A stretch of DNA of 64,000 nucleotides from positions 32,001-96,000 of IMG/VR virus record IMGVR_UViG_3300042868_010004, one strand, 5' to 3'. Under the pieces are notes generated by a model. It did not search any database. It was not told the DNA's origin and worked only from the letters and a program-made list of their open reading frames with translations. Below, in pieces: positions 9,512 through 48,451 of this stretch (the first letter of the stretch is position 1; each line of letters opens with the position of its first letter). A program made the translations under genes and the position numbers. This stretch comes from a virus.

Positions 9512-9910
9512 TTAGTCCACCAGAATCTTTTTCACAACCTTCTTCTCCTTCGGCAGATTGACAACCAGTATCCCATCCTGCATCTTTCCAGAAATACCCT
9601 CCGTCTGAATGCCTTGCCAGAGTTCCAAGGTCTTTGTGGTTTCTCCGTATTTCTCATTCTTCGCGCGAACCTCTAGGATTCCGTCTTGGATGCTAACCTC
9701 AATATCTTTATTTGCGTAACCGGGCAACTCCAGAGACAACTCCCATTGAGAATCAGTCTCATTTAATTTCATCCGGGAGGAGAATTGTGCAGAGGAGAAA
9801 GCAAATAAATCCCCGATTGATTTTTCATATCGGTCAAGGACGGTCGGATAATAATTAACGCGACCAAGGATTGGAGTAAGAAGGTTTGATGGATTTGAAT
9901 TGTAAGTCAT
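9512..9910 (-). CDS. small heat-shock protein (Hsp20/alpha-crystallin), probable start ATG 9910
   Basis: WELSLELPGYANKDIEVSIQDGILEVRA and ISGKMQDGILVVNLPK motifs. Confidence 0.92.
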   Translation of the reverse strand: MTYNSNPSNLLTPILGRVNYYPTVLDRYEKSIGDLFAFSSAQFSSRMKLNETDSQWELSLELPGYANKDIEVSIQDGILEVRAKNEKYGETTKTLELWQGIQTEGISGKMQDGILVVNLPKEKKVVKKILVD

Positions 9911-13500: not shown

Positions 13501-13641
13501 AATTTTATTTTTTAATTAAATGAAACGAACAGGTGATGGGTTTTGCCCGTTCGGAGTTTACAAGAAAACCCCTCCGCCAAGAACTGATTCTCCCTGAAAA
13601 CAATAAAGTTCAATCAATCCGTTCTACACCGCCTTAGAACC

Positions 13642-28773: not shown

Positions 28774-29658
28774 ATGAGAACGCACAAAAAATTCTGGACA
28801 CAGGAAGAAAAAGATTTGCTTGGCAAAGTATGCAATGGAACGGAAAGTTTCAAAACTATTGCGAAAAAATATTTTCCTAATAGAACGCATATGGCGGTTG
28901 AGTCAGCATGTAGTGTTTTTGGGTTTAAAAACGATTTCGATCATCGGACTTATCCGCCTGATGACAATTTTTGGTCTGTTCCAAATGAAAATAATTCATA
29001 TTGGGCTGGGGTGATGGCGGCAGACGGATGTATTTATAAAGATAAAGGCTTAAAATGTCGATCTTTTCATTGGGCTATTTCAGAGGTTGATTTGCCGTTG
29101 ATGAATATTTTTTATAAAGATGCCAAGTTGACATGTCCCATTATTAGATTTCAAAACACAAGAGATACTGGATACGTTAGTAAATTTATCAGGGTCAGCG
29201 TCTTTTCAAAACAATGGATGGAGGATTTTGAAAAAAATTTTAATCTAGTCCCTCTTAAAACACAAAGGCTCGCGCCCCCGGAACATCTTGAAGAAAAGCT
29301 ACTGTGGTCTTATTTGAAAGGCTACACCGATGGTGACGGATGCGTAAGAATAAGTAGAGGAAAAGAACACAAGACACTGGTTATAGAATATGCTTCTAGT
29401 AGCATAGAAATATTGCACTGGATAAAAAGGATGACTGATTTAAAATTTACATCAAGAAGGAATTACGGAAGAGAGGTTCACTCTAGCGGAAATAAACATA
29501 CTTTTTCTATTGGGGGACAAGCCGCAATTCAAATGTTCTTGTTTTTGTCAAAACTTCCCGTCCCTTGCCTTGACCGAAAATGGAAAAATCCAGAAGTCTT
29601 AGAGCTTGTCGCCAAAGAAGTCGCCGCCCGACCCGAAGCCTACAAAGACTTCGTTTAA
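28774..29658 (+). CDS. LAGLIDADG homing endonuclease
   Basis: SYWAGVMAADGC and SYLKGYTDGDGC motifs; AT-rich. Confidence 0.9.
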   Translation: MRTHKKFWTQEEKDLLGKVCNGTESFKTIAKKYFPNRTHMAVESACSVFGFKNDFDHRTYPPDDNFWSVPNENNSYWAGVMAADGCIYKDKGLKCRSFHWAISEVDLPLMNIFYKDAKLTCPIIRFQNTRDTGYVSKFIRVSVFSKQWMEDFEKNFNLVPLKTQRLAPPEHLEEKLLWSYLKGYTDGDGCVRISRGKEHKTLVIEYASSSIEILHWIKRMTDLKFTSRRNYGREVHSSGNKHTFSIGGQAAIQMFLFLSKLPVPCLDRKWKNPEVLELVAKEVAARPEAYKDFV

Positions 29659-32855: not shown

Positions 32856-33920
32856 ATGTCATTCAATCGTAGAATTTCCCAAACTCAGGGTCTTTTCGTT
32901 TCCCCCACTGGTGTCGCTGGTGTTACTGGTGTCGCTCAAATCTCCCGCGTTCAATCCGTGAATGATGGCTGGGAACTCAATCGTCAGAACGTCAATCAGT
33001 TCGGTCAACTTGCCGCTCTTTCCCGCGAGATTGTTGATGCCCCCACCGTCAATCTTTCCTTCTCTTATTATGTTACCGATGGTGCCGATGAAGAGCGTCT
33101 TGGTTTTGATATTGATGGCGTGAATGGCGCTCTTACTAATATTCTCAATAAGACCCAATCTGAGAAAAATTATTACATTCCCACCGTCCCCGAAGGCGAG
33201 GATCTTGCTGGTGAAGCTGTCGCGAGCATTGTTGATACCCGCGCTATCGGCAACGGTTTCGTATCTTCCTATTCTGTCGAAGGCTCTGTTGGTGGTTTCC
33301 TCACTGCGAATGTCTCTGTTGAAGCCTCTAATGCGGCCTATCACCTTGGCGGCTCTGGCAACCCCAATCCCGCGATTGATCCCCTTGATGGCGACGCCCT
33401 TTCCGGCACTTATACCCTTCCCGTTGGTGTGACTGGTGATGCAGGTCAGCCCATCGTTCTGAAACAAGGCGATCTCAGCCTAAATTTCGGTTCTATTGAT
33501 ACTATCGGTGCGACACTGACCGGTCTTGGTGCCGCCCACATTCAGTCATTCAATCTCAACATCCCGATGGGCCGCGAGCAGCTTCAGCGCCTTGGCAACC
33601 GTTATGCTTATGACCGTCCGCTGACCTTCCCAATTGATGTCACTCTGTCTGTCTCTGCCTTCGTCAATCAGTTGAATACCGGTTCCCTCGCCGAACTGTA
33701 TTGCGGTGACAACAAACATAATATTTCAATCGTTGCTAACAACTCCTGTATTGGTGGCGGGACCGCCGAGATGGTTTACACTCTGAAGGGTGCGACTCTG
33801 GATGCCAAATCCTTCACTTCCTCCATTGGCCCGGCTCAGACTGTCGATCTGACATTTACGGCCTCGGTTGGTGGTCCGAATGATGCAATTAATAACATTC
33901 TGTTCTCTGGCTCCGCCTAA
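32856..33920 (+). CDS. major tail (tube) protein
   Basis: 354 aa, high-expression codon bias, beta-rich pattern (YTLKGATLDAKSFTSSIG), GTGTAA box at 32768, terminator after it. Confidence 0.8.
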   Translation: MSFNRRISQTQGLFVSPTGVAGVTGVAQISRVQSVNDGWELNRQNVNQFGQLAALSREIVDAPTVNLSFSYYVTDGADEERLGFDIDGVNGALTNILNKTQSEKNYYIPTVPEGEDLAGEAVASIVDTRAIGNGFVSSYSVEGSVGGFLTANVSVEASNAAYHLGGSGNPNPAIDPLDGDALSGTYTLPVGVTGDAGQPIVLKQGDLSLNFGSIDTIGATLTGLGAAHIQSFNLNIPMGREQLQRLGNRYAYDRPLTFPIDVTLSVSAFVNQLNTGSLAELYCGDNKHNISIVANNSCIGGGTAEMVYTLKGATLDAKSFTSSIGPAQTVDLTFTASVGGPNDAINNILFSGSA

Positions 33921-33943
33921 TAAGGAAAATAAAATTCATAATT

Positions 33944-33975
33944 AACCCATTCAGGTTTTTCTGAGTGGGTTTTTT
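33944..33975 (+). terminator. intrinsic terminator after the major tail gene
   Basis: AACCCATTCAG/CTGAGTGGGTT stem plus T-run. Confidence 0.85.
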
Positions 33976-33976
33976 A

Positions 33977-34005
33977 TTGACTAAAAAGGAGGAAATTGTC
34001 ATAAT
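33977..34005 (+). promoter_or_regulatory. near-consensus sigma70 promoter (TTGACT-N17-CATAAT, TG extended -10)
   Basis: hexamers read directly; ATG 34012 lies 6 nt after the -10 (leaderless geometry). Confidence 0.75.
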
Positions 34006-34011
34006 CTTTAT

Positions 34012-34266
34012 ATGTCTAATGAATCCAAGCAGTCTATCATTCGTTTTTCCGCCGATGCCGCTAAAGATTATATCTGTCTGACTCTAGCGGATGGCCGGGT
34101 ATTTGAAGGTCGGAAGGCCATGAGGGACGTTCAGGTATCTTGGAAGCGGCACTTTGATTCCTATATGGGGTGGATTTCCGTAGAGGATAAAGTGTGGTTT
34201 GATGAAGGCCGGGCAGAACGACTTTACAACGAGCGGATGATTGCCAAGGGTGTCTTTACTTTTTGA
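34012..34266 (+). CDS. hypothetical protein (84 aa), moron-like
   Basis: has its own sigma70 promoter. Confidence 0.75.
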   Translation: MSNESKQSIIRFSADAAKDYICLTLADGRVFEGRKAMRDVQVSWKRHFDSYMGWISVEDKVWFDEGRAERLYNERMIAKGVFTF

Positions 34267-34443
34267 AACTTTGCTCTTGACTAATCCTTAAAGATTTTAA
34301 ATACTATCTTTGTTAGGCGCTTGGAGCCTAATTGTTCTTTGTCCGTAAAGTTGTTAGTAGAAAACGCTCAGAACTTTACCGCTAATAACGGTCATTTGAA
34401 AGCAACAAGCGCCCCAAAGGTCCAATCCCGATGGGGCTATTTT

Positions 34444-34713
34444 ATGAATCTTAATCGCTTCTCCATTCTAAACAGACTCAATCAGGAACAGATAAAGGAA
34501 TTATCCGAATCTTTCGGGTTTTCCTACTCTGAATTTCGTGAGGCCACAACCGGAAGGTATTTTAATGAAAAAATTTGCGATAAGATATGCAAGATGCTAG
34601 GCTATCGTCAGTGGTATCCGAAGTATTGGCCGAAGAATATGCCATATAACGGTTTAATGAATAAGGAAATGGGTAAAAAAATTCAAAAAAGAAAAGAAAA
34701 AGCAAAAAAGTAA
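34444..34713 (+). CDS. basic hypothetical protein, possibly HTH-like (probable start ATG 34444)
   Basis: LNQEQIKELSESFGFSYSEFREA helical pattern; Lys-rich tail. Confidence 0.6.
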   Translation: MNLNRFSILNRLNQEQIKELSESFGFSYSEFREATTGRYFNEKICDKICKMLGYRQWYPKYWPKNMPYNGLMNKEMGKKIQKRKEKAKK

Positions 34714-34748
34714 TTCTAGAATATCGTTCTTTCGTGTAAAATATTGAT

Positions 34749-35065
34749 AAGGTCCGATAAAAGCGTGAAAAAACGCTACAATTGCGCCAGCCTCTAACGG
34801 GATTTCCCACAATGCAGTTTGTGCCCGGACCAGCGCACTTTTGGTAAAACGGTTTACCGATGGGAGTAAGCAGCCTACTTAATTAAAGGGCGGACGTAAA
34901 AATCCGCGCAGGACCGAAGCAAATGTGGGCGAGACCGGTAGAGATTCAATCTCGCCGCCTTTTTCAGTGGCCCTTTGGGGTAATAGTCTCGCTTTTCGAA
35001 AGAAAGATTGGGCTGATGGGCGTAGTCCTAATTCACCACCCCGCTAGGGTGGATTGTGGACTTTT
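34749..35065 (+). ncRNA. putative structured non-coding RNA (~315 nt), family unrecognised
   Basis: ORF-free; starts ~10 nt after GTGTAA (34734); at least 8 predicted helices including nested multibranch pairings. Confidence 0.45.
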
Positions 35066-35620
35066 GGGACAGTAAAACAAAAGAGGTTCGTCGTTTGTGC
35101 TAACATGAATTAAAAAAAATGTATTTGTTGGCGAAAAAACCTGTTTTTGAGACAATCCGGCAAAGCCGGACAATCACCAAACGGGTAACTTCCAACAGTG
35201 GCAACTTTTTGAGTTAGCCCAATGAAGACCCAGAGCAAAACAAAACTTTTTCCGAGCAAAAAGATTTTCTTTTGATTTTCGCAAAGCCTCAAATTTCAAT
35301 CACCGCAAAAGTCTTTTCCAAAACCCGGCGAAACGAAAACGGCAAGCTCTGTCTAACGTTTAATCTTACCGAATTCGGTATCTTTAACGATCAATAAGAA
35401 AACGATTGTCGTTAAGAACGAATCAAAATCATTTGATAGTTTCTGCCGACCTATCGGTGTGTTTGACTATCATATTTCAACGATTGTATTTAGCCCCACA
35501 CCCCCCTACCCCCCCTCGCCCGTTTTGGCCCGCGCCGCCCGCCGAAATTCGCTCTTGACTTTTTTGCGAAAATCTTGAACAATACCCAAATCATGACAAC
35601 CAATCCAAATTCTAATTCAG

Positions 35621-35719
35621 ATCTAACGTCAAAGATGAGCGAGACGGATGATTGGCACTGGACGTGCGTAAGCACGGACTGTGACAAGCATACGGCTTCG
35701 CTCCATCGCTTTGTTAGGC
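35621..35719 (-). other. attC site 1 (99 bp)
   Basis: minus strand: GCCTAAC-AAAGC-GATGGAGC ... GCTCATC-TTTGAC-GTTAGAT (R''-5-L''(8, extra G) ... L'(7)-6-R'). Confidence 0.9.
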
Positions 35720-35755
35720 TTCTTTTTTTTAATTTTTCTGATAAAACGGAAAAAA

Positions 35756-36046
35756 TTAGCGAGGACCGTTCCGTTTCAATTCAGCTATCTGAGCAAGAAT
35801 ACCATCAAAGATTGGATGCACTGTCTCGCCTTCCTCCTGAACTTTAATGGAAAACACAACGGTAAGAACCGAACCTTTCTTCGGCTGAATATTCTTTTCT
35901 TTTAATGTCTGCTCTATGGCAAGAATCGCACCATCAATTGAAAGATCATGTGGGGCGACGACTCTCCAAACCCCCTCGGTTACTGGGTCGATTAGCTCAA
36001 CCACATTTGGAGCCTTCTTTGTGAACTGAAACTTTAAGTTACTCAT
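35756..36046 (-). CDS. cassette-borne hypothetical protein (96 aa from ATG 36046)
   Basis: stop 36 nt before the attC1 R'' box. Confidence 0.7.
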   Translation of the reverse strand: MSNLKFQFTKKAPNVVELIDPVTEGVWRVVAPHDLSIDGAILAIEQTLKEKNIQPKKGSVLTVVFSIKVQEEGETVHPIFDGILAQIAELKRNGPR

Positions 36047-36197
36047 TTTTCTGATTTTTCTATGATTACTAATACAAACAAAGTAAATTCCGACCAACAA
36101 CCCGACTACTCCGATAACCTAGTTGATACCGGAGTTAGAATGTGCCGGGACGACGAAAATAAATCCCTCACCGTATCCGTGGATGAATCCACTTTCA

Positions 36198-36485
36198 CTA
36201 TTCCCTTTTCCTTTCTTGAATCTGTCGTAACAGGCTTAATTCTTCAGGGCTGGGCAGGCCGTGTGCTGCCACCTGATTATCTGGATCAACTTTTAATATC
36301 ACTACCGGCGGGAGGTAAGGATCTATTCCGTCCCTGATGCGCTTGCTTCTGAAATCGACTACCGCTTTCTTAGCGGACTCAAAAGATAGTTCATGATCAG
36401 AGAATACCCAATATGTGATTTTTAGTCCGGGGTCACGGACACCGATCATGTGTTTTGGTGGAACCTCTTTGATGAAGTCGCTCAT
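36198..36485 (-). CDS. cassette-borne hypothetical protein (95 aa)
   Basis: ATG 77 nt after the attC2 R' box. Confidence 0.7.
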   Translation of the reverse strand: MSDFIKEVPPKHMIGVRDPGLKITYWVFSDHELSFESAKKAVVDFRSKRIRDGIDPYLPPVVILKVDPDNQVAAHGLPSPEELSLLRQIQERKRE

Positions 36486-36562
36486 GGTAATAATTTTTTA
36501 ATTTATGAATAACGCTAACGAAAAACAAATCGGCGCGGAAGCGCCTTCTGATGGCTCGGTGT

Positions 36563-36660
36563 GCCTAACGCCCCAGCCTACCCATGACACTGATTGGCAC
36601 GAATCGTGCGCAGCACGAGGCGTGACAAGCAGGGGCATTGGGTGCGGCGCTTCGTTAGGC
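36563..36660 (-). other. attC site 2 (98 bp)
   Basis: minus strand: GCCTAAC-GAAGC-GCCGCACC ... GGTAGGC-TGGGGC-GTTAGGC; shares TGATTGGCAC, CGTGCG..AGCACG and GTGACAAGCA with attC1. Confidence 0.88.
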
Positions 36661-36706
36661 TCTTTTTTGGCTTCCGGATTCGTTTATCAAGTGCTGCACT
36701 GCCTTT

Positions 36707-37138
36707 TCAGACCTTTTTACTATTTCCGTCTTGTTCGGTGGTTTGTAAGTCTGAATCCGACCATTCATCATTTTCTCCTTTTGTGTCAGGCGTCGGCAAT
36801 ATGTCGGGGTAACTCTCAATCGGCCTTGGCGTGTATAAATAATCCGAATTCTCCGGGCAAGATAGCCTTTTATTCAAATTATACGTTACCGTTGCCATAT
36901 CCAAAGAACGAAAAAATGGATGCCAAGGCTTGGGGGCCTCTGCCATCAATCTCCCACCAAACTCCCACACAAGACAAACTGTGCCCGCAATCCCAGCATT
37001 TGCCGCGCAAATCTGTATAAAAATCTTGGTTTCAAGCATATCTTTCGCGGTGGCATTTTGTGCCCACCGTCCATTCAGAGGAACTATAATCATTTGCTGA
37101 CCACGAACATTCAAATGCGCTATATTGTAATTCTTCAT
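36707..37138 (-). CDS. cassette-borne hypothetical protein (143 aa)
   Basis: AHLNVRGQQMIIVPL...CAANAGIAGTVCLVW...APKPWHPFFRS looks like a conserved small bacterial domain; ends 46 nt before attC2. Confidence 0.75.
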   Translation of the reverse strand: MKNYNIAHLNVRGQQMIIVPLNGRWAQNATAKDMLETKIFIQICAANAGIAGTVCLVWEFGGRLMAEAPKPWHPFFRSLDMATVTYNLNKRLSCPENSDYLYTPRPIESYPDILPTPDTKGENDEWSDSDLQTTEQDGNSKKV

Positions 37139-37205
37139 ATTGTAAGATAGATGAATAAAATTCAGTAAATTAGCAGGATTGCGTCCGAAACCAATAAAAC
37201 TCTGG

Positions 37206-38630
37206 CTATAATCTATCTAGATCAGCTAGAATCTCTCTTGGTGCCGCGCCATTCTCGGGTCCGACAATTCCGTTCTCCTCCAATAAATCCATGATCTGCG
37301 CCGCTCGATTATATCCAATCCTGAGGCGGCGCTGAAGAGTCGAGGTTGATGCCCGCTGAGTAGCCTTAAGAATATTCAGCGCCTTGTTGTATAATAAAAC
37401 ATCATCCAGATCTTCTCCTTCATCATCCACTTCGTCCAAATCATCTTCCTCGGAAGAGTCATCGAACTGTATAGCTCTATTTATTAAATCAGATTTGCTC
37501 TCGGTTTCTGAGCGGACGAGAACCCCCAGAACCATCGCAAGCAAATCATCTACATCGTGAATCTTCGAAACTTGGGAAGAAACCACAGCTTCGTCATCAA
37601 AAAGTCGCGCACTTAGCCGGGAATGAATCCCTTTCGGATGAAGTAGAAAAACATTCGCGGAGGAAGCCAATGCTTGGGCTGATTTCGTGAAAATTCCGGT
37701 GCTAATAACTGCGGCAAAATCAGCCTTCTCAAACTCTCTTCCCGCAATGATTTCTTGAACGGCTGAGTTCCCGACACTGTTAGCGTATCGTTTGCACTGA
37801 ACCACAAGTTTAACTCTCGGCGTCGTCGCAATAACATCAATTCCTTGATCCCCGCTCCCCGATGTGGTTCGTGTAGTCCAACCCGAGCGAGAAAGTTCGT
37901 TAGCGCATTCTCTCTCGAAACTGATGGGATCAAGCTCGGCCCATTCAAACTCCGCGCTTTCTGCCTTACCCCAGCATGACGAAGCAAAGTCAATAATGCG
38001 AAATACTCTATTGTATGTTGATTCTACACTTTTTACTGATCGCAGAGAATCAAATTCCTTACTGCTTCCACCTACTAAAAAATGAAGGATGAAATAATTA
38101 ATCTCTGCGTCCCATTCCTCTCGAATCTGTCTCCCATAATGATCAACGCGCAAAAGCTGGGATCTTCTTAGGCTCAGTGTGGGCAAATGATGAACCAACG
38201 GGGGCCTGATTAAATCAATGATTTTTAGTAACTCGATTTCGGTTCGCTCTTTTTCGGCTTTAGCTCTTTCAAGCAGTTCAATCTTTCTTTCCTTTTCTCT
38301 GCTCAATCTCAAAGACTCAAATTCGATTTTCTTCGCCTCTCGCCTGATAGTATCCAGAGACAATCCATCAAGGAAATGATTCAATTGCTCCGCCGTGAAT
38401 TTAAATTTTGTGAGATCTGCCAGCTCTCGGTTAGCTTCCTCAACAAAATACTCTAACGTTACACCGGGAAGGTCTCGGAATGCTTTTAACGAATCCCGCC
38501 ATACCATCTCTTGCTCCTTGGTGATTACTGTGACGACCGGGGCGGGCTTCTCACTCTTCTTGGTCTGACACTTATGACACGTTTGGGCGTCATCCCAGTT
38601 CTGAACGTTGCAGCATGGACAGTTCCACAT
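37206..38630 (-). CDS. Zn-ribbon + coiled coil + Mrr-like PD-(D/E)xK endonuclease + FtsK gamma domain fusion
   Basis: MWNCPCC...TCHKC; FERECANEL...GDQGIDVIA...VVQCKRY...VGNSAVQEI; RASTSTLQRRLRIGYNRAAQIMDLLEENGIVGP. Confidence 0.9.
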   Translation of the reverse strand: MWNCPCCNVQNWDDAQTCHKCQTKKSEKPAPVVTVITKEQEMVWRDSLKAFRDLPGVTLEYFVEEANRELADLTKFKFTAEQLNHFLDGLSLDTIRREAKKIEFESLRLSREKERKIELLERAKAEKERTEIELLKIIDLIRPPLVHHLPTLSLRRSQLLRVDHYGRQIREEWDAEINYFILHFLVGGSSKEFDSLRSVKSVESTYNRVFRIIDFASSCWGKAESAEFEWAELDPISFERECANELSRSGWTTRTTSGSGDQGIDVIATTPRVKLVVQCKRYANSVGNSAVQEIIAGREFEKADFAAVISTGIFTKSAQALASSANVFLLHPKGIHSRLSARLFDDEAVVSSQVSKIHDVDDLLAMVLGVLVRSETESKSDLINRAIQFDDSSEEDDLDEVDDEGEDLDDVLLYNKALNILKATQRASTSTLQRRLRIGYNRAAQIMDLLEENGIVGPENGAAPREILADLDRL

Positions 38631-38980
38631 GGTGTTGAGCTAGGCAAAATGCCAATTTTTCGTAAAGCGAAAATCTATTTTTCTTTGGCTGCGGTGATGT
38701 GAGCGAGGCGAACGGTAGAATTAAAAAACCTTTGGCTGCGCACTTTTGCGCGGCAGCGCAATCTGGAATTAGATAGCTGGGCTTCGCCCGGCGTCGATTT
38801 CGTGTGTGGTGCCTAGCATGGGTCGTGCGTAGCACGACTGATGCGTAGCACGGTTGTTTGTGGTTTGTTGGCTCGAAAAACGACTTTGTGACCGTTCGGC
38901 GCAAGCCGATTTAAGGGAACAATGTCGTGGATTGGGGGATCGTTTTTCTCTTTTTCCGAAGATCGGTGTAACCCAAGGAA

Positions 38981-39316
38981 ATGGATTCCAAGTATGAGCT
39001 AACTAGAGAAGATTTCGAAAATCATTTCGCTAGATTCTCAGAAGAGGAGCGAAAGCGTATAATTTCCTTTCTGGAAAAGACTCAATATACCCCACCACTT
39101 TCTTCATTCTTTCTTCGTCCGACATCAGCTCCTTGGTCCATTTTCCCTCTAGCTCTCTCGCGATTCTTTCACTATTTATTTTGGCATAAGCTGATTTCAA
39201 CCAATCTCCGAAATCGTCTAGACCAGTGGCAAAAGCGTAGATATGAGCGTATTCATGGTAAACCACCTGAAGGGGACAATTTCCTGAAGACTTTATTAGA
39301 GTGGGGCGCAGACTGA
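38981..39316 (+). CDS. hypothetical protein (111 aa) with late-promoter geometry
   Basis: GTGTAA 38966-38971, 9 nt before the ATG; overlaps a minus-strand ORF. Confidence 0.5.
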   Translation: MDSKYELTREDFENHFARFSEEERKRIISFLEKTQYTPPLSSFFLRPTSAPWSIFPLALSRFFHYLFWHKLISTNLRNRLDQWQKRRYERIHGKPPEGDNFLKTLLEWGAD

Positions 39317-39485
39317 TTGTATCTCCGATTGCTCCCGCGATACTGACCGGCTGATTATCACTGGCGAAAACCTTAATACCTTCGGGATACTTTTGAAGTA
39401 TAGCCGATTGAACCTCGCCCGGCAACGTATCGAATAACTGGCGGGCCAGATTTTCTAGATTGGTGTATTCGTGAGGGGGCGGCAT
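39030..39485 (-). CDS. HExxH zinc-metallopeptidase-like cassette protein (probable start ATG 39485)
   Basis: VVYHEYAHIY; starts 65 nt after the attC half-site R' box at 39551. Confidence 0.6.
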   Translation of the reverse strand: MPPPHEYTNLENLARQLFDTLPGEVQSAILQKYPEGIKVFASDNQPVSIAGAIGDTISLRPTLIKSSGNCPLQVVYHEYAHIYAFATGLDDFGDWLKSAYAKINSERIARELEGKWTKELMSDEERMKKVVGYIESFPERKLYAFAPLLRI

Positions 39486-39550
39486 GGTTTTTGGGGCGAG
39501 TGGCTGGCGCGGAGCATGCGAATAAGGAAATAGATTGGGTGGGTTGGTTT

Positions 39551-39577
39551 GCCTAACGCTCAAGGTGAGCGAGACGG
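39551..39577 (-). other. attC half site (L'/R' arm)
   Basis: plus text GCCTAAC-GCTCAA-GGTGAGC-GAGACGG, nearly the same as the corresponding arm of attC1. Confidence 0.75.
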
Positions 39578-39608
39578 GATAAGTCTTATTTTGTTTTTGT
39601 TTTGGTAT

Positions 39609-39716
39609 GCCTAACGCCCCCTATCAGCCATGCAGCCCCAATCTTTCGGTCCTATGAATAACTCCTCGCGAAAAATTGTAACGGCTATATGCATTGGCTG
39701 CATAGGTTTGTTAGGC
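39609..39716 (-). other. attC site 3 (108 bp)
   Basis: minus strand: GCCTAAC-AAACC-TATGCAGC ... GCTGATA-GGGGGC-GTTAGGC; second unpaired base in CAATGCA/TGCATG. Confidence 0.9.
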
Positions 39717-39785
39717 TCATTTTTTATTTTTCTTCTTTCTTTAGGACTACATCCAGTTCTAGCGGCTTTATTGGCGCTAGGGGGA

Positions 39786-40049
39786 TCAGTAAGTGTGTCT
39801 GGCTTGACGTTTGTGGCGATTGGAATATGGGGGCCACCTGAATGGATGCTCTAGGGAAAACGGTAAACCATGCCTGAATACTTCCAAAAGCCGTGGCAGA
39901 TAAGTAAATATAAAAAGTAATATGTTCGTCCATCTCTGTTCTCTCTGTATCTTTAACTGCATTGAAGCCATTCGCGCCAAAGTTCGCAATATGGCCTGCC
40001 CAGTTCCTCTGCCTTGGAAATTCAGTGATTCATCGTGTGTATCTATCAA
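39786..40049 (-). CDS. possible cassette ORF (ambiguous; competing ORFs 39654-39854 plus and 39724-39933 minus)
   Basis: lies between the 40088 half site and attC3; one hydrophobic stretch; TTG start. Confidence 0.3.
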   Translation of the reverse strand: MIDTHDESLNFQGRGTGQAILRTLARMASMQLKIQREQRWTNILLFIFTYLPRLLEVFRHGLPFSLEHPFRWPPYSNRHKRQARHTY

Positions 40050-40057
40050 TAGATGTT

Positions 40058-40088
40058 CCGGCGTGTTCGCTCCAGCGCTTCGTTAGGT
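40058..40088 (-). other. attC half site (R''/L'' arm)
   Basis: minus strand ACCTAAC-GAAGC-GCTGGAGC-GAA, same family as the attC1 arm. Confidence 0.75.
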
Positions 40089-40191
40089 TCCTGTAATTTC
40101 TCATTTTCTATTTTCCCGTGTAATCCCTTTTTAGGCAAAGGCAGGATTCAGAATTCAGTCAGTAATTGGTTTTTCGGCACACGGTAAAAAT

Positions 40192-40476
40192 ATGCAAGCA
40201 AAAGATTATCTAGGTCTACATACGACCAAAGAAGTAAAATACCTATACAAGCATTTCCTTGAGACTCTTGAGGAAATCCACCGGCAGCACGATTCCAGTT
40301 TGTTCAAACTGATGAACGGGCTACCAAAAGAGTATCAGTCTCAGGTCATTCAGGCCGCGTTTTTTGACGACGAGGGCTATCAGCACTTTCGTAAGCTCGT
40401 GCTCGACCACGGAAACGAATCCATCCGGGCGCTCCTTGATGAGATTGAGAAATATGAAATTGACTTCAAGCGATAG
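40192..40476 (+). CDS. hypothetical protein (94 aa), tail module
   Basis: ATG ORF after a GTGTAA box at 40118. Confidence 0.75.
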   Translation: MQAKDYLGLHTTKEVKYLYKHFLETLEEIHRQHDSSLFKLMNGLPKEYQSQVIQAAFFDDEGYQHFRKLVLDHGNESIRALLDEIEKYEIDFKR

Positions 40477-40520
40477 GGCGGCTAAAATATAAACCACAAA
40501 TAATTTAAATTCCAACTAGC

Positions 40521-41300
40521 ATGTCCACTGATTTCATCAAAAACAAGAAACCCGAGTATTCCTTTACTTCCTACATAACAGGGAAAGTTACTAAAGAGGA
40601 GGTCCGACAGGAGAATGGCTCCGAAGTGATCGTCAAGAAAGAGGTCGAGGAGAAAATTCCCGTTTCAATCTATTTCTATAAGCCGACTCGGAGACAGCGC
40701 GAGGAAGCCGACTTGGTATATTCCAAAAAGATGTTCTCCCTGATGGAAGAGGGCATTATGACCAAGCAGCAGATTGCGAAAGTCTATAATAATGGTGGTG
40801 GCGACCTGAGTAAGCCGGAAGTCGATCTTTATGTTAAGCTCACGACTGAATTGTCCACCAAACTCCGCGATGCCGAATATCTCAATCGAAAAGACCCCTC
40901 GACTTGGACCGAAGAGGAGAAAATCAAGAATGTCTCCGTCATTACCGACATCTCTTTGATTAAGCGCGAACTGATTGAATTTGAAACCCAGCGCGCCGCC
41001 ATCTTTGAGCATTGCGCCGACCAGAAAGCCTTCTACCATGTCTTATCTTGGTATGTCGTGAATCTGACTTTCAAGCAGATTGGTGATAAGATTGAACCGC
41101 TATTTGTCGGGAAGACCTTTGAGGAAAAGCTGGATAATTATGATGAACTGATTGAAAAGGATGATGAATTAATTTCAAATATCCGCCACAAACTCAATTC
41201 TCTGGTCGCTTACTGGTATTCCGCCGGTCCGAAAGAAAAGAAGGATTGGTTGCCGATTGAGGAAGAGCTGGGTATTACCCCCGAGGCAGAAAAATCTTAA
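40521..41300 (+). CDS. putative tail assembly chaperone
   Basis: charged helical protein between major tail and tape measure genes; synteny. Confidence 0.6.
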   Translation: MSTDFIKNKKPEYSFTSYITGKVTKEEVRQENGSEVIVKKEVEEKIPVSIYFYKPTRRQREEADLVYSKKMFSLMEEGIMTKQQIAKVYNNGGGDLSKPEVDLYVKLTTELSTKLRDAEYLNRKDPSTWTEEEKIKNVSVITDISLIKRELIEFETQRAAIFEHCADQKAFYHVLSWYVVNLTFKQIGDKIEPLFVGKTFEEKLDNYDELIEKDDELISNIRHKLNSLVAYWYSAGPKEKKDWLPIEEELGITPEAEKS

Positions 41301-41327
41301 TTAAATCACAGATTAAGCCGGTCTCCT

Positions 41328-42326
41328 ATGTCTAAATTTGACGACCGCGAGCTAAAACGCCTCTTTGTCGAAATTACCAAGGGTTATACTGAGGTTCGTC
41401 GCGGCAAAGAGGTTTTCTATATCAAGCACTTCAATCAGGAAGACCAGTTTGAAATTGATGATTTTTATTTTCAGAAGCTAGAAAGCCTGAAAGATTCCGG
41501 TATTCCGACCGAGGAGCAAGTGCTTGAACAGTTGGCAAAAAAGAAAATCTGGACAACTCAGGATGAGGTTTGGTTAAGTCAGAAGGAATTAGAGATTAAC
41601 CAGTTGATTAAAACACGGGATAAACAAAGCTTGCCTTCCCAGATTGAGTATTTTGATGGGTTAATTCAGGCTGAACGGACGGAGTTATTCCGAAAGAAAT
41701 CGCAGCGGGCGGGCCTGATTGGGGATACGCGGGAGAGATTCGCCAATCAATCCGTGAACTCCTATTTCATCCTACAATCATTCTACAAAGATAAGGAATG
41801 CCGAAATTTATTAGTTTCCCCGGAAGAGTTTGAGGATATGGAGGATGACGCTCTTCTTAGTTTCAGTTTGCTCTATAGTAAGTCCATGCAGATGTATAAC
41901 AATGAGTCGATCAAAAAGGTCGCGGTCTGCTCATTCTTTCAAAATTTATTCTATCTGGCCGAAAATATTCATCAATTTTGGGGGAAGCCAATAAAGGATC
42001 TGACTATCTATCAGACTGAATTGTCGTCTTATGGCCGTTATTTCAAATCGGTCTTGCAGAACTCCGAACATGAGATACCGGAGGAGATTCGCTCAGACCC
42101 GGACAAGCTACTTGGATTCGCCAAAATGGACAATAAGATGAAGGAGAATTTGAGTAAGGGCAGCGGACAGAATGCATCGTTTACCGGCACAAAGGAAGAT
42201 GCGAAGAAGCTTGGTATTAAATTAACTAATGAATATAGTAAACATGCAAAGCGATTGGGCCGGAATCTGACTCGGGATGATATGTTTATGATTGATAAGG
42301 GCGAAGGACATAAGATTAAGGCTTGA
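41328..42326 (+). CDS. putative tail assembly chaperone 2 / pre-tape-measure protein
   Basis: charged helical protein immediately before the tape measure gene; synteny. Confidence 0.6.
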   Translation: MSKFDDRELKRLFVEITKGYTEVRRGKEVFYIKHFNQEDQFEIDDFYFQKLESLKDSGIPTEEQVLEQLAKKKIWTTQDEVWLSQKELEINQLIKTRDKQSLPSQIEYFDGLIQAERTELFRKKSQRAGLIGDTRERFANQSVNSYFILQSFYKDKECRNLLVSPEEFEDMEDDALLSFSLLYSKSMQMYNNESIKKVAVCSFFQNLFYLAENIHQFWGKPIKDLTIYQTELSSYGRYFKSVLQNSEHEIPEEIRSDPDKLLGFAKMDNKMKENLSKGSGQNASFTGTKEDAKKLGIKLTNEYSKHAKRLGRNLTRDDMFMIDKGEGHKIKA

Positions 42327-42350
42327 GGTATTCTATTGGACCTATTTTGG

Positions 42351-42376
42351 GTGTAATCCTTTATATAGGTTTAAGG
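42351..42376 (+). promoter_or_regulatory. GTGTAA box plus AGGTTTAAGG leader motif before the tape measure gene
   Basis: GTGTAA 42351-42356, AGGTTTAAGG 42367-42376. Confidence 0.6.
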
Positions 42377-42394
42377 ATTTAAGATTTTATCATC

Positions 42395-45300
42395 ATGGCT
42401 GACGCACCCTTTGTTTTCTCCTCAAGACTCAGCACCCGTTCTTGGGAGCGGGATGTTAACGCTGGTTTCCGTCGTGCGCAGGCCGGTATCAATCGGCAGA
42501 AGATTGGTTTTAATGTTGATCCCTCTGGTCTGAATAAACTTTCGGCCCCTCTTGGTAAACTCACGACTCAGGCCGGTGAGTTCAATCGCTCCCTTGAAGC
42601 GTCCAATGCCCGCGTTTTGGCCTTCGGTGCCTCCGTTGGTATTATCACGGCGCTTGGCCGTGGTTTTTCAGCCCTTGTTCGTGACGCCGTTGAAGTTCAG
42701 GCCGTCTTGGCTGATATTAATACGATCCTGAAGCAGAGCGCGGATGGTTTGTCCCAGTATGAGGCGCAGATTTTTAGTGTCGCTAGAAATACGGGTCGTT
42801 CTTTTAAAGAAACTGCTACCGCTGCCTTGGAGCTTTCCCGTCAAGGTCTATCGGCAGAGGAATCACTTGAACGACTGAATAATGCACTCATCCTGACTCG
42901 CCTTAGCGGTTTGTCTGCCGAGGATTCCGTTCAAAGCGTCACGGCGGCTATCAACTCTTTCTCGAAAGAAGTCTTAGACTCCTCCATTGTTGTTAATAAA
43001 TTCTCGACTGTCGCCGCGAAATTCTTCGTTTCAGAGAAGGACTTGGCCGAAGCCGTCCGTCGCGTGGGCTCCTCTGCTCAGGATGCCAATGTCAGCTTTG
43101 ATGAACTGATTGCCATCGTAACTGCCGCTCAACAGACTACGGCCCGTGGTGGCGCGGTTATCGGTAATTCATTTAAGACAATTTTCACCCGTCTGCAACG
43201 TTCAAGCACCCTGACGGAGTTGGAAAATTTAGGTGTCGCCGTAAGAGATTTAGAGGGAAATGTTCTCCCCGCTGTTGAAATTCTTAAATCTCTCGCCAGT
43301 CAGATTGACGGATTGAGTCAGCCCCAGCAGGCTTATATTTCCGAATTGACCGCTGGTGTCTTCCAAATCAATCAGTTGAAGGCTATTCTCGGTGACTTGT
43401 CTGGTGAATATTCTTTTTATAAAGCGGCCTTGGAGTCTTCGGTTGGCGCGACAAATGAGGCCATCAAACGTAATGAAGAGCTGAATAAAACTTACGCCGC
43501 TCAATTCAATGCAATTAAGCAGAGTATCACCCAGATTTCTTCTGTTTTGGGTCGCGACCTACTCGGTCCCCTTACTCAATCCTTAACCGCATTTTTTGAG
43601 TCCGCTCAGGATACTTTCGGAATTAAAGAGGGCGAAAAAGTCGGTAGTGAATTTGCTTCTGGTATTGTAAAAGGTATTGGCGGTGTAATCGGCGGGCCGG
43701 GCTTATTGGTTGCCAGCGCGGTCATCCTTGGCCTCTTTGTAAAACTCGGAAAATTTGCCCTTGGCGCGCTTAAAACCGTCTCTGACTTGGCTGGCGTTAT
43801 CGGAAAGAGAAAAGAAATTCAGGCGGAGGTTAATCGTTTGGTCGCCGAGGAACCCAAACTTCTCAGTCAGATTCTAACCGGGGCAAAATCCGTAGAGGAG
43901 GTTGAGAAGAGAATTCTTGCTTTAATCAGGCAGAAGATTATAGCGCAGGAACAATTTAATGCTGTTACTTTGGGCGTTGCGACTAGGGCCACCCCGAGGG
44001 TAGGCCAAGGCACCAATCTGGCTCAGGCGGGCTTAGGTTTCAGCGGAGGGGCTTTTACTAGTCGTCCAGTTGGTGGAACGGGCCGCGTTCCTAATTTTGC
44101 CGATCCAATTAAGGAAGCTTTTGATCGTGAGCGCGCAGCGGGCATTCCAGCCAATCAGATTTATGTGGATTCCGACCCACGAGTAAAGGGACCGGGTAAT
44201 CCTCTTGGTCTTCTAGTGGCGAATCGTCGGGACGAGCCATTAGGCGGTTTTCAAGGTGTCAATCGGGCAATTGCCTTGGGTCAAGATCCGAAGAAATCAG
44301 GAATGAGCGGATCGAATATTCCGAATTTTGCCGCGTTTGATAATCTTCAAATGGGTGGAAATTTTGCCCCATTTAACATCACGTCGGAACAGTCCAGACA
44401 ATTCCGCTCTCTTTTTGGTAAACTAACCAACAGCGTTTCCAAACTGAATCGTCAGCTATCTTTTGAATTAGGCGAGTCTATTCAAAAGTATGGTGAGAGC
44501 ATTAACCTCACAAAAGAATCACAGGAAAAGGTTCGCTCGGTTCTTAATCAGCAATTTAACCGGCTGGTCAGACTAGAAAATCAACCAAGAATTATTCGTT
44601 CTGGTGGTGGGCGTAGAGCTACACTGGAGGAATTTGAAGCCACGAGACAGCAGTTTGCGGGAGTATCTGGACTCGCAGGTCCGAATTTTACCGAAGGTTC
44701 AATCGGGGTGGGTAGAAATAGGGAGATTACAAAAGCTTTTGCTTCTAGATCTATTCAGGAACAGCGCGGGATTAATCTTCAGGCGGCTTCCGAAAGAGTC
44801 CAAAGCGGAAGAAATCTAACATCTTCCCAGTTAAAAGCCATTAGCACCGAATCTTTCATTCAGGCTTTACAAAGTCCTTCTCTCGCCGGTCTTTCCAAAA
44901 GAGAAATCGCAGTAAATCCCGAGGCTAGGAGAGAGTTGCGCCGCTTGGCAAAGGCATATCGTGATGAATTCGGCAAGGCTTTGGATTCGGCTCAAATTAG
45001 TTCCGCTGCTGACCGTGCTTTTACATTTTCAAATTTCAGTCTCGGTTCTGTCTTCGGAACGGAAAAGGGTGATGAGAAAAGATTCCGCCGTGAATTGGGT
45101 GTCAAGCCGGGGCAAAAACTTTCTTCTGAACAGCAAAATACATTCTTCAACCGTAGAATGCAGACTCAGCAACAAAGAAGCTCGAATGTAACAAATCGAG
45201 CTTTCCTTGGTTCAATTGCAGCGTCTTTTATCGCTCCCCAGTTTGCCGATAGTAGTCCGATCACAAGTGGGATTTTTGAGGGCGCGGGGGCGGGGTTGGC

Positions 45301-48300
45301 GGCGGGCGGCTTGGCAAGTATGGGGAATCCTTATATTGCTGCCGGTGCAGGTCTTGCAGGCGCGGGCATAGGCGCGACTAAAGCTATCAGTGGTGGAGAT
45401 GAAAGAGCCTTTAATAAAGCTGCCTCTGATTTCCAAAATCTAACTGCGAAAATTAACGAGAATAGAAACGGCGTTCAGCAATATATTGAAGCGCAGGCGA
45501 AACTTAATGATACGTTGAAAGAAGGTAAGGCTTCAACAGAGGATATTGAAAAACTAAATCAGAATCTCACCAACGTCTTCCGGACGATTGAAGATCAGGG
45601 TCTTCGTCGTGGCATTATTGCCGCCGCCGGAAATCTTGAACAGCTACAAAAAGTTTTTGCCGAATTTGAAAAGAATTCAATCTTCAAGGAAGCTGCTGAG
45701 TCAATCACCTTGCTTTCCACTTCCGCCAAGAATAATAAAACAGGGAGAAACGCCTTCGGTTTTGGTGGAGACTTCCTTACTCGCGATCTCTCTAAGATTG
45801 GAGAAAATCTTCTTACGGCAAATTCAGGCGACGAAAAGACTCGATCTGGCTTCCTGAGTCTGATCCAAGAGATTGATGAATTAGCTGCGTCAGGAAAATC
45901 TGAACAGGCGGCGGAAAAGCTAGCTAGAATTAATCCGGCCCTAGAAGGAATTGATAACTCATTTGATATTCGCACGATTACCGGCGCGGCTCTTGCATTC
46001 AACGATGTTTCTAAAGCCCTGAAATCCACACAGGAGGTCAACACGGAATACCTTGCCCAATTAGGAAAATACCAAAGGGAGTTCCTGAAACTATCTTCCG
46101 AATTAATCGAACAGCAACGCATCATCCAGCTTGAAGGCGAGTTACAAACCCGTCTGACCTTGGCTCGCGTGGGCGCAAATTTGGAGGATTCAACTTTTGG
46201 CACGACTGAGCGCTCGGCAATCGGGGCGCGATCCTCTTTCAGACAAGCCGAACTGGTGGGTCGTTTTAATGAACAGAGGTCCGAACTTGATTCCGGCCTG
46301 CGTGCCAATTTGCAGTCTTTCTTATCCGAGGTTCCGCAAACACTCTCCCGGCAATTTGCCAACCGCATCCAAAGTGGAAGTCCAAGACAGGTCTTGGATG
46401 AGATTCTTCAGGCGACAACCGGCTCGACAAGTGAACTTGGGAAGAAGCCGCAAGAGCAGATTGACAAATTAGAGCAGTTGCAAAAGACTTTTGACGGTCA
46501 ACTAACCGAACTCAACAAATCGACTCGCGAATCCCTTGAATTGGAGAGAATTTCAGCGGAGGCGGAAAAGCGTCGCGTTGACCGGCAGAATCGGATTGGT
46601 TTGCTTGGCGGAGCGAGTTTTAATCCGTTAGATTTTTCAGCAATACGGGCCGGTCGTGGGGCCGCAACTACCAGATTCCGTGGGGAGCAAATTCTTCGCG
46701 GGAATACCGCCGGACTGGATACCAATGCTATCCGCAATACAACGCAGTCTGCCCGTATCCTTGAAACGCAAGGCATTCTCTCTCGCTCTCAACTCTTACC
46801 CGGCCTTCCAACGAGTGACCGCGATATTGATACTGCCAGCAAGGCGTTTGAACAAAATCTTACCGACAATCTCAATCAGCTTGTCGCATCCTCTCTTCGC
46901 GGCCTCCTTTCGGATGAATCTCTTGGGCAGACTGGTTTGGTTTCGGGTCAGGATTTACGCGGGGGTCTGACTTCTCTACTCAGTCGTTCGGCGCGCGGTG
47001 GTCAAACCGACTTTTCTGGTGCCGCTAATTTTGTTCGCGCTCGCCTGCCCGATTTTGGTTCCGGCGGAGAACTTAAACGTCAATTGATTGAATTATTTGA
47101 GGAGGCGGCGAGAGATCAGGGGACATTGGGCGAGGCTGGGCGGGATCAAGCCAGAAGCCTCCTTCAGACGGATAAACAAAAAGAGGATTCCTTTATCCAG
47201 AGGCTTGTTTCGGGCTTCAAGGGTGAGGATATCGCTCGGAATACTTTTGATACGCAGGTCAGAATTGAAGAGCTAAAGAAAGTTTTTGAGGCTCAGGCGG
47301 CATTAACCGTAAAATCGGAAGCAGTATCCGCCAAACAAAGAGAACTGAATGAAATAAACGTTGCAAAAGCGGAAGCGCAGAGAGATATAGAGCGTCGCGT
47401 GGGCGGCAGCAGATTCGACTTTTCAAAAACTAGGGTTTTGACTGGCGGAAATACAATTCCGTTAGACGAACAACTAAAACTTGTCAGAGAAATTGTCTCT
47501 AAATTGGGACTTCCGGAATTTAAACCCGGTGATTCAACAACCCTGCCTGCTATCCGCAGCTTAACAAAAGGTATTGGTGAAAGTTCTACTTTGTCCGAGG
47601 CAAGGGATCGCATTTTGGGATCTCCCGAGTTGGAGCCAGCCGTTAGATTCATTTCCCAAGGGGCTAGAACCGACGAGGAAAGAGTCGCGGCGGTAGATAA
47701 ATTCCTTTTAGAGTTTTCTACCGCTGATGAAACCGTAAAAAATGCAAATTCTAGTCTCAGTCAGTTTAATACGCAAATTGGGGCCGTCACCACAGAGCTA
47801 AACAAATTGCGCGCAAGATTGGATATTGATACAAAAACATTTCAGGGGCAATTCGCCTCCCAACCACCTAATATTGTCAGTAATCGCCTATCTAACAGCG
47901 GCACCCTATCTGATACACAAAAAAGCGATTCCCGTAGGATTATTGGTGGATTTTCCGAAAATCTTCGAGGCGGAGCAAATGCGATTTCGGCTTTGCAATC
48001 TAATCGGGAGCAGCTTGGGAAGGTTAACGAAAGAATTCAAGGCGTGGTTCAGAGAACGGCTCAGTCTGGAACTCTTTCTCGTTCTGACGAGGCCCTTCTC
48101 GACGCTTTGCGACAGGATAGAAATGAATTGGCGGCAGTAATTAATGCACAGGAGGAATCTATAAAGAAAGGTGTTACCGAAATTGCAAATAAAACTGCCG
48201 AAGCAATGAAGGAGGCATTTGTTGACTTGCCGGACGCTCTGAATGCAACACTGACACAGAATTTGACTCTGGCTGGTCAGGTAATCCTCAGAGATGGAAA

Positions 48301-48451
48301 AGTAACAGCGGAAGAGGTTCAAGGCTTGAATGAGGCTTTCTTAAAATTCATTGAAGAGTATTACAGCAAAAAACTAAAAGAAAAAGCTGATGCTCAAACG
48401 AAAGAAAACGGCGGAATACCCACCCCTCCAACCCAGCGCCCAAAAGTCTAA
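42395..48451 (+). CDS. tape measure protein (2018 aa)
   Basis: N-terminal TP901-type core (ALELSRQGLSAEESLERLNNALILTRLSGLSAEDSV), long helical Ala/Gly/Leu-rich body, hydrophobic segments. Confidence 0.93.
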   Translation: MADAPFVFSSRLSTRSWERDVNAGFRRAQAGINRQKIGFNVDPSGLNKLSAPLGKLTTQAGEFNRSLEASNARVLAFGASVGIITALGRGFSALVRDAVEVQAVLADINTILKQSADGLSQYEAQIFSVARNTGRSFKETATAALELSRQGLSAEESLERLNNALILTRLSGLSAEDSVQSVTAAINSFSKEVLDSSIVVNKFSTVAAKFFVSEKDLAEAVRRVGSSAQDANVSFDELIAIVTAAQQTTARGGAVIGNSFKTIFTRLQRSSTLTELENLGVAVRDLEGNVLPAVEILKSLASQIDGLSQPQQAYISELTAGVFQINQLKAILGDLSGEYSFYKAALESSVGATNEAIKRNEELNKTYAAQFNAIKQSITQISSVLGRDLLGPLTQSLTAFFESAQDTFGIKEGEKVGSEFASGIVKGIGGVIGGPGLLVASAVILGLFVKLGKFALGALKTVSDLAGVIGKRKEIQAEVNRLVAEEPKLLSQILTGAKSVEEVEKRILALIRQKIIAQEQFNAVTLGVATRATPRVGQGTNLAQAGLGFSGGAFTSRPVGGTGRVPNFADPIKEAFDRERAAGIPANQIYVDSDPRVKGPGNPLGLLVANRRDEPLGGFQGVNRAIALGQDPKKSGMSGSNIPNFAAFDNLQMGGNFAPFNITSEQSRQFRSLFGKLTNSVSKLNRQLSFELGESIQKYGESINLTKESQEKVRSVLNQQFNRLVRLENQPRIIRSGGGRRATLEEFEATRQQFAGVSGLAGPNFTEGSIGVGRNREITKAFASRSIQEQRGINLQAASERVQSGRNLTSSQLKAISTESFIQALQSPSLAGLSKREIAVNPEARRELRRLAKAYRDEFGKALDSAQISSAADRAFTFSNFSLGSVFGTEKGDEKRFRRELGVKPGQKLSSEQQNTFFNRRMQTQQQRSSNVTNRAFLGSIAASFIAPQFADSSPITSGIFEGAGAGLAAGGLASMGNPYIAAGAGLAGAGIGATKAISGGDERAFNKAASDFQNLTAKINENRNGVQQYIEAQAKLNDTLKEGKASTEDIEKLNQNLTNVFRTIEDQGLRRGIIAAAGNLEQLQKVFAEFEKNSIFKEAAESITLLSTSAKNNKTGRNAFGFGGDFLTRDLSKIGENLLTANSGDEKTRSGFLSLIQEIDELAASGKSEQAAEKLARINPALEGIDNSFDIRTITGAALAFNDVSKALKSTQEVNTEYLAQLGKYQREFLKLSSELIEQQRIIQLEGELQTRLTLARVGANLEDSTFGTTERSAIGARSSFRQAELVGRFNEQRSELDSGLRANLQSFLSEVPQTLSRQFANRIQSGSPRQVLDEILQATTGSTSELGKKPQEQIDKLEQLQKTFDGQLTELNKSTRESLELERISAEAEKRRVDRQNRIGLLGGASFNPLDFSAIRAGRGAATTRFRGEQILRGNTAGLDTNAIRNTTQSARILETQGILSRSQLLPGLPTSDRDIDTASKAFEQNLTDNLNQLVASSLRGLLSDESLGQTGLVSGQDLRGGLTSLLSRSARGGQTDFSGAANFVRARLPDFGSGGELKRQLIELFEEAARDQGTLGEAGRDQARSLLQTDKQKEDSFIQRLVSGFKGEDIARNTFDTQVRIEELKKVFEAQAALTVKSEAVSAKQRELNEINVAKAEAQRDIERRVGGSRFDFSKTRVLTGGNTIPLDEQLKLVREIVSKLGLPEFKPGDSTTLPAIRSLTKGIGESSTLSEARDRILGSPELEPAVRFISQGARTDEERVAAVDKFLLEFSTADETVKNANSSLSQFNTQIGAVTTELNKLRARLDIDTKTFQGQFASQPPNIVSNRLSNSGTLSDTQKSDSRRIIGGFSENLRGGANAISALQSNREQLGKVNERIQGVVQRTAQSGTLSRSDEALLDALRQDRNELAAVINAQEESIKKGVTEIANKTAEAMKEAFVDLPDALNATLTQNLTLAGQVILRDGKVTAEEVQGLNEAFLKFIEEYYSKKLKEKADAQTKENGGIPTPPTQRPKV

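Follow-up and report, generated by a model that had tools for sequence, protein, structure and literature searches.

A cluster of attC sites lacking an integron integrase, very probably derived from host integrons, between tail genes of a 191-kb lake phage

The IMG/VR virus record IMGVR_UViG_3300042868_010004 holds a phage genome of 191,122 bp. Bases 32001–96000 of this record, a stretch of 64,000 nucleotides that is called the window in the following and provides all coordinates, carry an array of gene cassettes with integron recombination sites (attC) at 35621–40088, between genes for tail proteins. We consider it very probable that this locus is a genuine phage-borne cluster of attC sites lacking an integron integrase (CALIN) of host origin. 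A CALIN is defined as two or more attC sites that are separated by less than 4 kb and have no integron integrase nearby (Cury et al. 2016, as in IntegronFinder). The intact sites attC1 and attC2 are separated by 843 nt, attC2 and attC3 by 2948 nt, and the complete genome has no integrase; hence, the locus falls under this definition. The search with PF00589 and TIGR02249 across the whole genome, bounded by its direct terminal repeat, gave no matches: the phage is without a tyrosine recombinase and without an integron integrase. A first-pass annotation, made from the DNA letters alone, had described an integron-type attC array and suggested a search of the genome for an IntI. Neither an attI site nor a Pc promoter was recognised; the locus is not a complete integron, which would comprise intI, attI and Pc.

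The array has three intact sites. Their scores were obtained with a covariance model of bacterial attC sites (R1, described below), and the hairpin stabilities are given as minimum free energy (MFE) of the DNA:

35621–35719, minus strand: attC1, intact; R1 90.3 bits, E 2e-24; hairpin MFE −26 kcal/mol.
36563–36660, minus strand: attC2, intact; R1 69.5 bits, E 3e-18; hairpin MFE −31.5 kcal/mol.
39609–39716, minus strand: attC3, R and L boxes intact, centre divergent; R1 27.9 bits, E 8e-6; hairpin MFE −19 kcal/mol.

The attC layout proposed earlier for these positions held in the direct reading of the letters, in the hairpins formed by the R boxes and in the R1 scores. The top strand of attC1–attC3 is the minus strand. 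In this direction, all three sites are composed of RYYYAAC (GCCTAAC), a 5-nt spacer, the L″ box, a variable centre, the L′ box, a 6-nt spacer and GTTRRRY. The R box pairs are GCCTAAC...GTTAGAT in attC1 and GCCTAAC...GTTAGGC in attC2 and attC3, and R″ and R′ close the predicted hairpin at each site. At position 4, the L″ box always carries an additional base, which is a G on the top strand. The classical aadA attC site, whose top strand has the same layout as the phage sites, carries an extrahelical G on its bottom strand. Pairs of RYYYAAC and GTTRRRY at a distance of 50–160 nt occur 22 times in the 191-kb genome, and long hairpins closed by R boxes were found only in attC1–attC3. Four of the five GTTAGGC heptamers of the genome are located within 34312–39710.

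Genes and attC top strands share the minus strand, antisense to the tail operon, with a polarity as in bacterial arrays. The distance from the stop of an open reading frame (ORF) to the following site is 36 nt for attC1 and 46 nt for attC2, and the cassette gene c36198 starts 77 nt after attC2. These values confirmed the spacing of ORFs and sites given in the first pass.

R1 was built from 23 bacterial attC sites alone, with phage sequences excluded. It is our own surrogate for the IntegronFinder model and was run with filters off; in this form, the covariance check suggested for the locus was performed, and all three sites were recovered. RNAalifold predicted 25 base pairs for the alignment of the 23 sites, 16 of them with compensatory changes. 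The phage sites scored on the minus strand, and the first two reached only about 30 bits on the plus strand. The score of attC3 was obtained with a local end over the divergent centre. There was no further significant R1 match elsewhere in the window or in the whole 191-kb genome. Rfam at its gathering thresholds gave no matches, and no attC family was among its hits. A MAFFT alignment of 11 heterogeneous attC-like sites beside IntI genes (A2) recovered only the R″/R′ helix and was not used for the model. Five contigs (L005–L009) obtained in the first viral pattern scan with phage-specific letters were rejected; the matches in them are not attC sites.

The bacterial relatives of the sites were found in Verrucomicrobiota. 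A pattern scan of genomes with the centre shared by attC1 and attC2 yielded one match, in the metagenome-assembled genome (MAG) of an Opitutus sp. Further attC-like sites come after this one, and a truncated integron-integrase fragment stands before it. Among 401 genomes from the order of the Opitutus MAG, at least 10 gave full-length copies with 70–84% identity in blastn with attC1, often several per locus. The highest value, 84%, was shared by attC sites of the Opitutus MAG and of genome G329, the latter beside IntI. In G329, G297 and G234, sites with 78–84% identity over the full length lie 1–4.5 kb from a full-length IntI (376–383 bits, cut-off 265) and on the opposite strand, which is the canonical divergent layout. 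IntI exceeded the curated NCBIfam cut-off in 40 of 201 sampled genomes of this order. Dense arrays of a repeat family of about 99 nt are located beside IntI in Opitutales-type genomes, for example, four copies within 1.5 kb in L091. Judged by these comparisons, attC1–attC3 are genuine integron attC sites and belong to the family of chromosomal integrons in the order of the Opitutus MAG. Because homologous sites stand beside IntI genes in this order, host integrons are the likely source of the phage sites.

The contig of the Opitutus MAG (L016, 4201–9421) has an IntI truncated to the N-terminal 60 residues. Its first cassette encodes an adenine DNA methylase and a 169-aa ORF and is followed by a cassette with a GNAT acetyltransferase. 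Other viral-classed records also have attC sites of the family: L127 (IMG/VR, 70,354 bp) with at least 10 within 3.7 kb, L129 with five, and also L132 and L133. They show no protein similarity to the 191-kb phage, and an IntI was not found in L127 or L129. These records may be other phages or bacterial fragments. A Logan contig of run X11 contains a 40-nt match to the R″–L″ arm of attC1 with loose ends at 35681 and 35720, diverging on both sides. The contig probably stems from a further member of the attC family in this lake sample, carried by the host or by another phage, and is not evidence of exchange.

The record is a tailed phage genome and not a bacterial contig or prophage. It has a direct terminal repeat of 127 bp, a CheckV completeness of 100%, a large terminase (TerL), a tail tube fold and a tape measure protein, and is without an integrase. 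The genome is of siphophage type and comes from lake water; all public runs containing the stretch are lake-water metagenomes. A tRNA scan of the window found none.

The array resides in an insertion of about 6.3 kb and accounts for most of it. The flanks and the left part of the insertion are:

32856–33920, plus strand: major tail (tube) protein, 354 aa, upstream flank; AlphaFold2 model with a predicted local distance difference test score (pLDDT) of 77 and a predicted template modelling score (pTM) of 0.80.
33937–35313: left part of the insertion, strain-variable, with ORFs of 84 and 89 aa on the plus strand, an ORF-poor stretch and attC relics.
40192–48451, plus strand: downstream flank with conserved tail genes (94, 259 and 332 aa) and the tape measure protein, assigned by PHROG matches and by adjacency in relatives.

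The best Foldseek matches of the tube protein in the PDB were 8xan, 8ed0 of phage P74-26 and pb6 of phage T5 (E 1e-12 to 1e-11, TM 0.6–0.7). The tape measure protein of 2018 aa (42395–48451) has PHROG tape measure matches with E 3e-40. In relatives with 37–59% identity of the tube protein (L001–L003, L035 and L036), about 130 nt separate the tube gene from the homologue of the 94-aa gene downstream; the corresponding interval in the window is 6.27 kb. By this comparison, the locus was inserted between genes that are neighbours in the relatives. The tube fold and the short spacing elsewhere bear out the position assigned in the first pass, between the tube gene ending at 33920 and the genes from 40192. 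Scans of metagenome and viral collections with the tube protein returned only relatives with 34–39% identity.

The array is placed in an intergenic gap that extends from the terminator of the tube gene to a conserved motif before the next tail gene. The terminator-like hairpin is at 33944–33971. The motif GTGTAA at 40118–40123 is conserved in all relatives 60–80 nt upstream of the 94-aa gene, and the array ends 29 nt before it by direct count. The extended form CGTGTAAW is present at 13641, 23018, 34733 and 40117, always on the plus strand; four copies against 2.7 expected are not above chance. Three of them (13641, 23018 and 40117) directly precede plus-strand genes, and the ORF-poor stretch begins with the one at 34733. 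CGTGTAAW may be a phage promoter element.

Besides the intact sites, the insertion holds decayed ones:

38786–38873, minus strand: degenerate attC, central hairpin kept, R boxes decayed; R1 10.6 bits, E 1.2, not significant.
39551–39600, minus strand: truncated 3′ half site (L′, spacer, R′), attC1-like, aligning with the L′–R′ arm of attC1; GCCTAAC at 39551 on the plus strand.
Ending at 40088, minus strand: truncated R″–L″ relic, aligning with R″, spacer and L″ of attC1 and attC2.
34312–34318 and 35351–35357: bare R-box relics, R″ and R′, respectively; R1 only 8.4 and 7.6 bits.

The central motif of the degenerate site is the one common to attC1 and attC2, as seen by direct inspection. The two truncated sites correspond to the half sites already noticed in the first pass. 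Altogether, three intact and at least three decayed sites bound about five cassettes. The order on the minus strand, from 40088 downwards, is a 69-aa ORF, attC3, the half site, a 152-aa ORF, the degenerate site, a pair of 474 and 143 aa, attC2, a pair of 95 and 96 aa, and attC1. The cargo in this order is:

39724–40088, minus strand: distal end with the R″–L″ relic and a doubtful 69-aa ORF (39724–39933) that lacks homologue evidence.
39030–39488, minus strand: c39030, 152 aa, small HExxH metallopeptidase-like protein with a HEYAH motif, weak Pfam matches to SprT-like and M91 and a SprT/M48-like fold in the Atlas model.
36707–38630, minus strand: two-gene cassette of c37206 (37206–38630, 474 aa), with Pfam domains, and c36707 (36707–37138, 143 aa).
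35756–36485, minus strand: two-gene cassette of c36198 (36198–36485, 95 aa) and c35756 (35756–36046, 96 aa), without assigned function.

In the protein c37206, a RanBP2-like zinc ribbon and a coiled coil occur together with an Mrr-type nuclease (Pfam Mrr_cat E 3e-22), an acidic linker and an FtsK gamma domain (Pfam FtsK_gamma E 5e-25). Its gamma domain is 75–78% identical to those of true FtsK proteins, one of them with a source name beginning with Opituta. The closest non-phage homologue, P0123 with 62% identity, was found on metagenome scaffolds with arrays of seven to eight attC sites of the same family (62–104 bits). P0123 is the first gene of a two-gene cassette, as is c37206, and its arrays vary by whole cassettes between samples. 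The second gene of this bacterial Mrr cassette has no similarity to c36707. Shorter Mrr–gamma fusions of about 340 aa, 46–52% identical to c37206, are present in L111–L113, where small co-oriented genes are lined up after gyrA. For c36198, seven homologues were present among 1.8 billion representatives. One of them, in the non-phage contig L121, is 84% identical and sits 80 nt behind a same-family attC with 96.8 bits.

The small cargo proteins had nothing significant in Pfam, NCBIfam or PADLOC, and no antibiotic resistance gene is involved in the cargo. Promoter-like sites were no more frequent in the array than in shuffles. With a GC content of 0.454, the array is not set apart from the phage (0.429) or from the bacterial arrays (0.44–0.49). 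The cargo, with its Mrr nuclease–FtsK gamma fusion, small metallopeptidase and small proteins, probably serves in conflict with the host or with rival phages.

Related phages differ at the insertion point. In L019 (tube protein 69% identity), a single different gene of 111 aa on the minus strand is enclosed by two intact attC sites (63.9 and 29 bits). This array likewise ends a few tens of nucleotides before the GTGTAA motif and thus uses the same insertion point. In L038 (68% identity), an 81-aa gene is all that is present at this position; the 84-aa ORF of the window is 51% identical to an ORF that L038 has at the same place. A third relative, G402, has a genome of 172 kb with a CheckV completeness of 100% and is more distant (tube protein 57%, terminase 45% identity). 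Its tube gene and the next gene are adjacent, and a recombinase search in its genome found none. G402 has an array elsewhere in the genome, where three attC sites (86–90 bits) enclose a HindIII-type endonuclease and an N6/N4 methylase beside ClpP and PhoH genes. The array is at 9678–13493 of L131 (IMG/VR record of 172,181 bp, the same contig as L036), at most 640 nt from the contig end.

Close relatives of the phage have the same array. It is present at 99.7% identity in L017/L030, L029, L031 and L118, and the sole difference is the replacement of 33937–35313 by an unrelated segment of 967 bp. This replacement, with an 81-aa ORF, is also found in L018 and in runs X3, X4 and X9. It represents a second variable module that adjoins the array and is not bounded by attC. 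The 48-kb Joint Genome Institute (JGI) contig L017, from another sample and differing elsewhere, and the 92-kb Logan contig L031 both span the array and the tail flanks. Logan contigs of four further lake runs tile the array, with the strain-specific replacement (33907–35352) as the only joint. A strain apparently without the array is represented by a contig of 14,216 bp from JGI 3300059473. Its tube protein is identical and the 94-aa gene follows 963 nt after an 81-aa gene, leaving about 4.56 kb less, approximately the size of the array. The content of the locus, which the first pass had named as a point to compare, differs in the relatives L019 and L038; the 99%-identical contigs share the same cassettes.

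An assembly chimera of a phage contig with a bacterial integron contig would explain the bacterial character of the sites, the single point in its favour. It is ruled out because independent assemblies contain the array: both tail flanks are joined to it in L017 and L031 and across the overlapping Logan contigs from four more lake runs, and L019 also has attC sites at the locus. The continuity across 33.9–40.2 kb, raised as a point to check in the first pass, is thereby established, and the probability left to a chimera is negligible. Another reading takes the repeats for something other than attC, either phage hairpins such as terminators or repetitive extragenic palindromic (REP)-like elements, or a coding motif of small plus-strand membrane proteins (for example, 39630–39854; L019 11203–11514). 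Plus-strand ORFs do pass through every site, with GTTAGGC read as Leu-Gly, and one gene caller chose such an ORF of 171 aa in L031. The same family of elements, however, stands beside full-length IntI in bacteria and has 16 pairs with compensatory changes. Minus-strand scores are 40–60 bits above those of the plus strand, and Pfam domains or homologues belong to the minus-strand genes, while the plus-strand ORFs have none. This reading is very improbable.

A more serious rival is a static relic. A fragment of a host integron array would have entered once by illegitimate or homologous recombination, in the manner of ordinary phage mosaicism, and would remain as an accessory island, now fixed, with decaying attC sites that serve no integrase. 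An integrase is absent from the phage, and Qi et al. also weigh off-target or illegitimate recombination for phage CALINs (PMC9892861). The retention of full R and L boxes with 28–90 bits in three sites speaks against this, as do the other cassette that two intact attC sites enclose at this position in L019, the independent array at another locus of a related phage and the strain that apparently lacks the array. We regard the static relic as unlikely. The different cassette in L019, the separate array of G402 and the strain without the array fit the action of an integrase better than a single accident. A host-derived CALIN in continuing exchange has to face several contrary points; the decay of sites and the identical content among them favour the static relic. 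The extrahelical base of the bottom strand is a C in all three phage sites and mostly a T in the bacterial family, of which some members are like the phage. The assignment of the host to Verrucomicrobiota, which is likely, draws on the similarity of attC sites and the FtsK gamma domain only. About half of the sites of the array, three or more, are truncated or degenerate. Cassette content is identical in all contigs of about 99% identity, from several samples and different years, and contigs of the four lake runs contain neither a cassette-skipping joint nor a joint at an attC site. The strain without the array is known from a gene table and not from DNA. Movement is deduced by comparison, with no event observed. 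The first pass had proposed capture, and possible continuing exchange, of host cassettes. An origin in host integrons is supported; continuing exchange is something we infer. Whether the cassettes still move is nearly balanced, with a slight leaning towards rest.

A host-derived CALIN could have arisen as follows. Cassettes of host integrons would be captured during infection. The IntI of the host would recombine excised cassettes, folded as single-stranded hairpins, at first into a secondary site of the GTT type or into an existing attC. Recombination between attC sites would be the next step. Later gain, loss and reshuffling would require the IntI of a host in trans. With the decay of several sites since then, part of the cargo may be becoming fixed. 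As a tentative generalisation, large freshwater phages of Opitutales-type hosts might keep integrase-less attC platforms at safe intergenic points and swap cassettes by means of the abundant integron integrases of their hosts. If true, such phages would regularly use and carry the cassette pool of their hosts, taking from it nucleases and restriction–modification systems for use against hosts and competing phages. The target of an Mrr nuclease fused to a host-like FtsK gamma domain would then be the FtsK orienting polar sequence (KOPS) motifs of the host chromosome.

Homing-endonuclease-like ORFs are present in the packaging and structural region of the window at 18840–20180 and 28774–29658 on the plus strand, one with a LAGLIDADG_3 match and one with a match to a PHROG endonuclease/HNH family.

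Through the family of its attC sites, an uncultivated phage of 191 kb is linked to a bacterial order, and attC families may be usable as host markers. Three related phages with three cassette configurations make an exchange by a trans-acting host integrase testable. The array would represent an additional route for defence-type genes between strains of Verrucomicrobiota. The known picture is unchanged, and the added value is in the link at family level to host sites adjacent to IntI and in the recurrent, differing arrays within one phage clade.

Integron components in phages are established. CALINs occur in virulent and in temperate phages: a scan of 10,705 phage genomes found integron components in 21, including 17 CALINs, and five attC sites from virulent phages recombined with attI1 under IntI1 (Qi, Rajabal, Ghaly, Tetu and Gillings 2023, Front Microbiol, PMC9892861). 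A phage CALIN is not a new kind of element, because CALINs with functional attC sites in virulent phages are already described in that study. The locus shares with them an integrase-less cluster of co-oriented cassettes in a tailed phage, a cargo of restriction or methylation type and the proposed capture from, and return to, host integrons. It differs in its setting, an uncultivated 191-kb lake phage with a likely Verrucomicrobiota host. Its attC sites are assigned to a specific chromosomal family with members adjacent to IntI, and among related phages, one has another cassette at this insertion point and one has a second array elsewhere in its genome. IntI1 activity was shown for the published sites; those described here are known from their sequence.

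A homogeneous attC repeat family of about 99 nt resembles sedentary chromosomal integrons, such as the Vibrio cholerae repeats. In contrast to these, intI is absent from the phage, neither attI nor Pc was recognised, and the only three intact sites lie antisense within a structural operon. According to a preprint (10.1101/2022.09.11.507474), IntI catalyses cassette insertion at secondary genomic sites. This would offer a route for a first cassette into a GTT-containing intergenic site of a genome without attI. Here, the junctions at 40088, 34312 and 35351 are decayed and the entry event is no longer readable. Like the accessory islands of phages known as ‘morons’, the array is an antisense, self-contained and non-essential block between a terminator and a conserved motif, absent in relatives. 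Unlike these islands, it is delimited internally by integron sites, and its genes are homologous to those of bacterial integron arrays.

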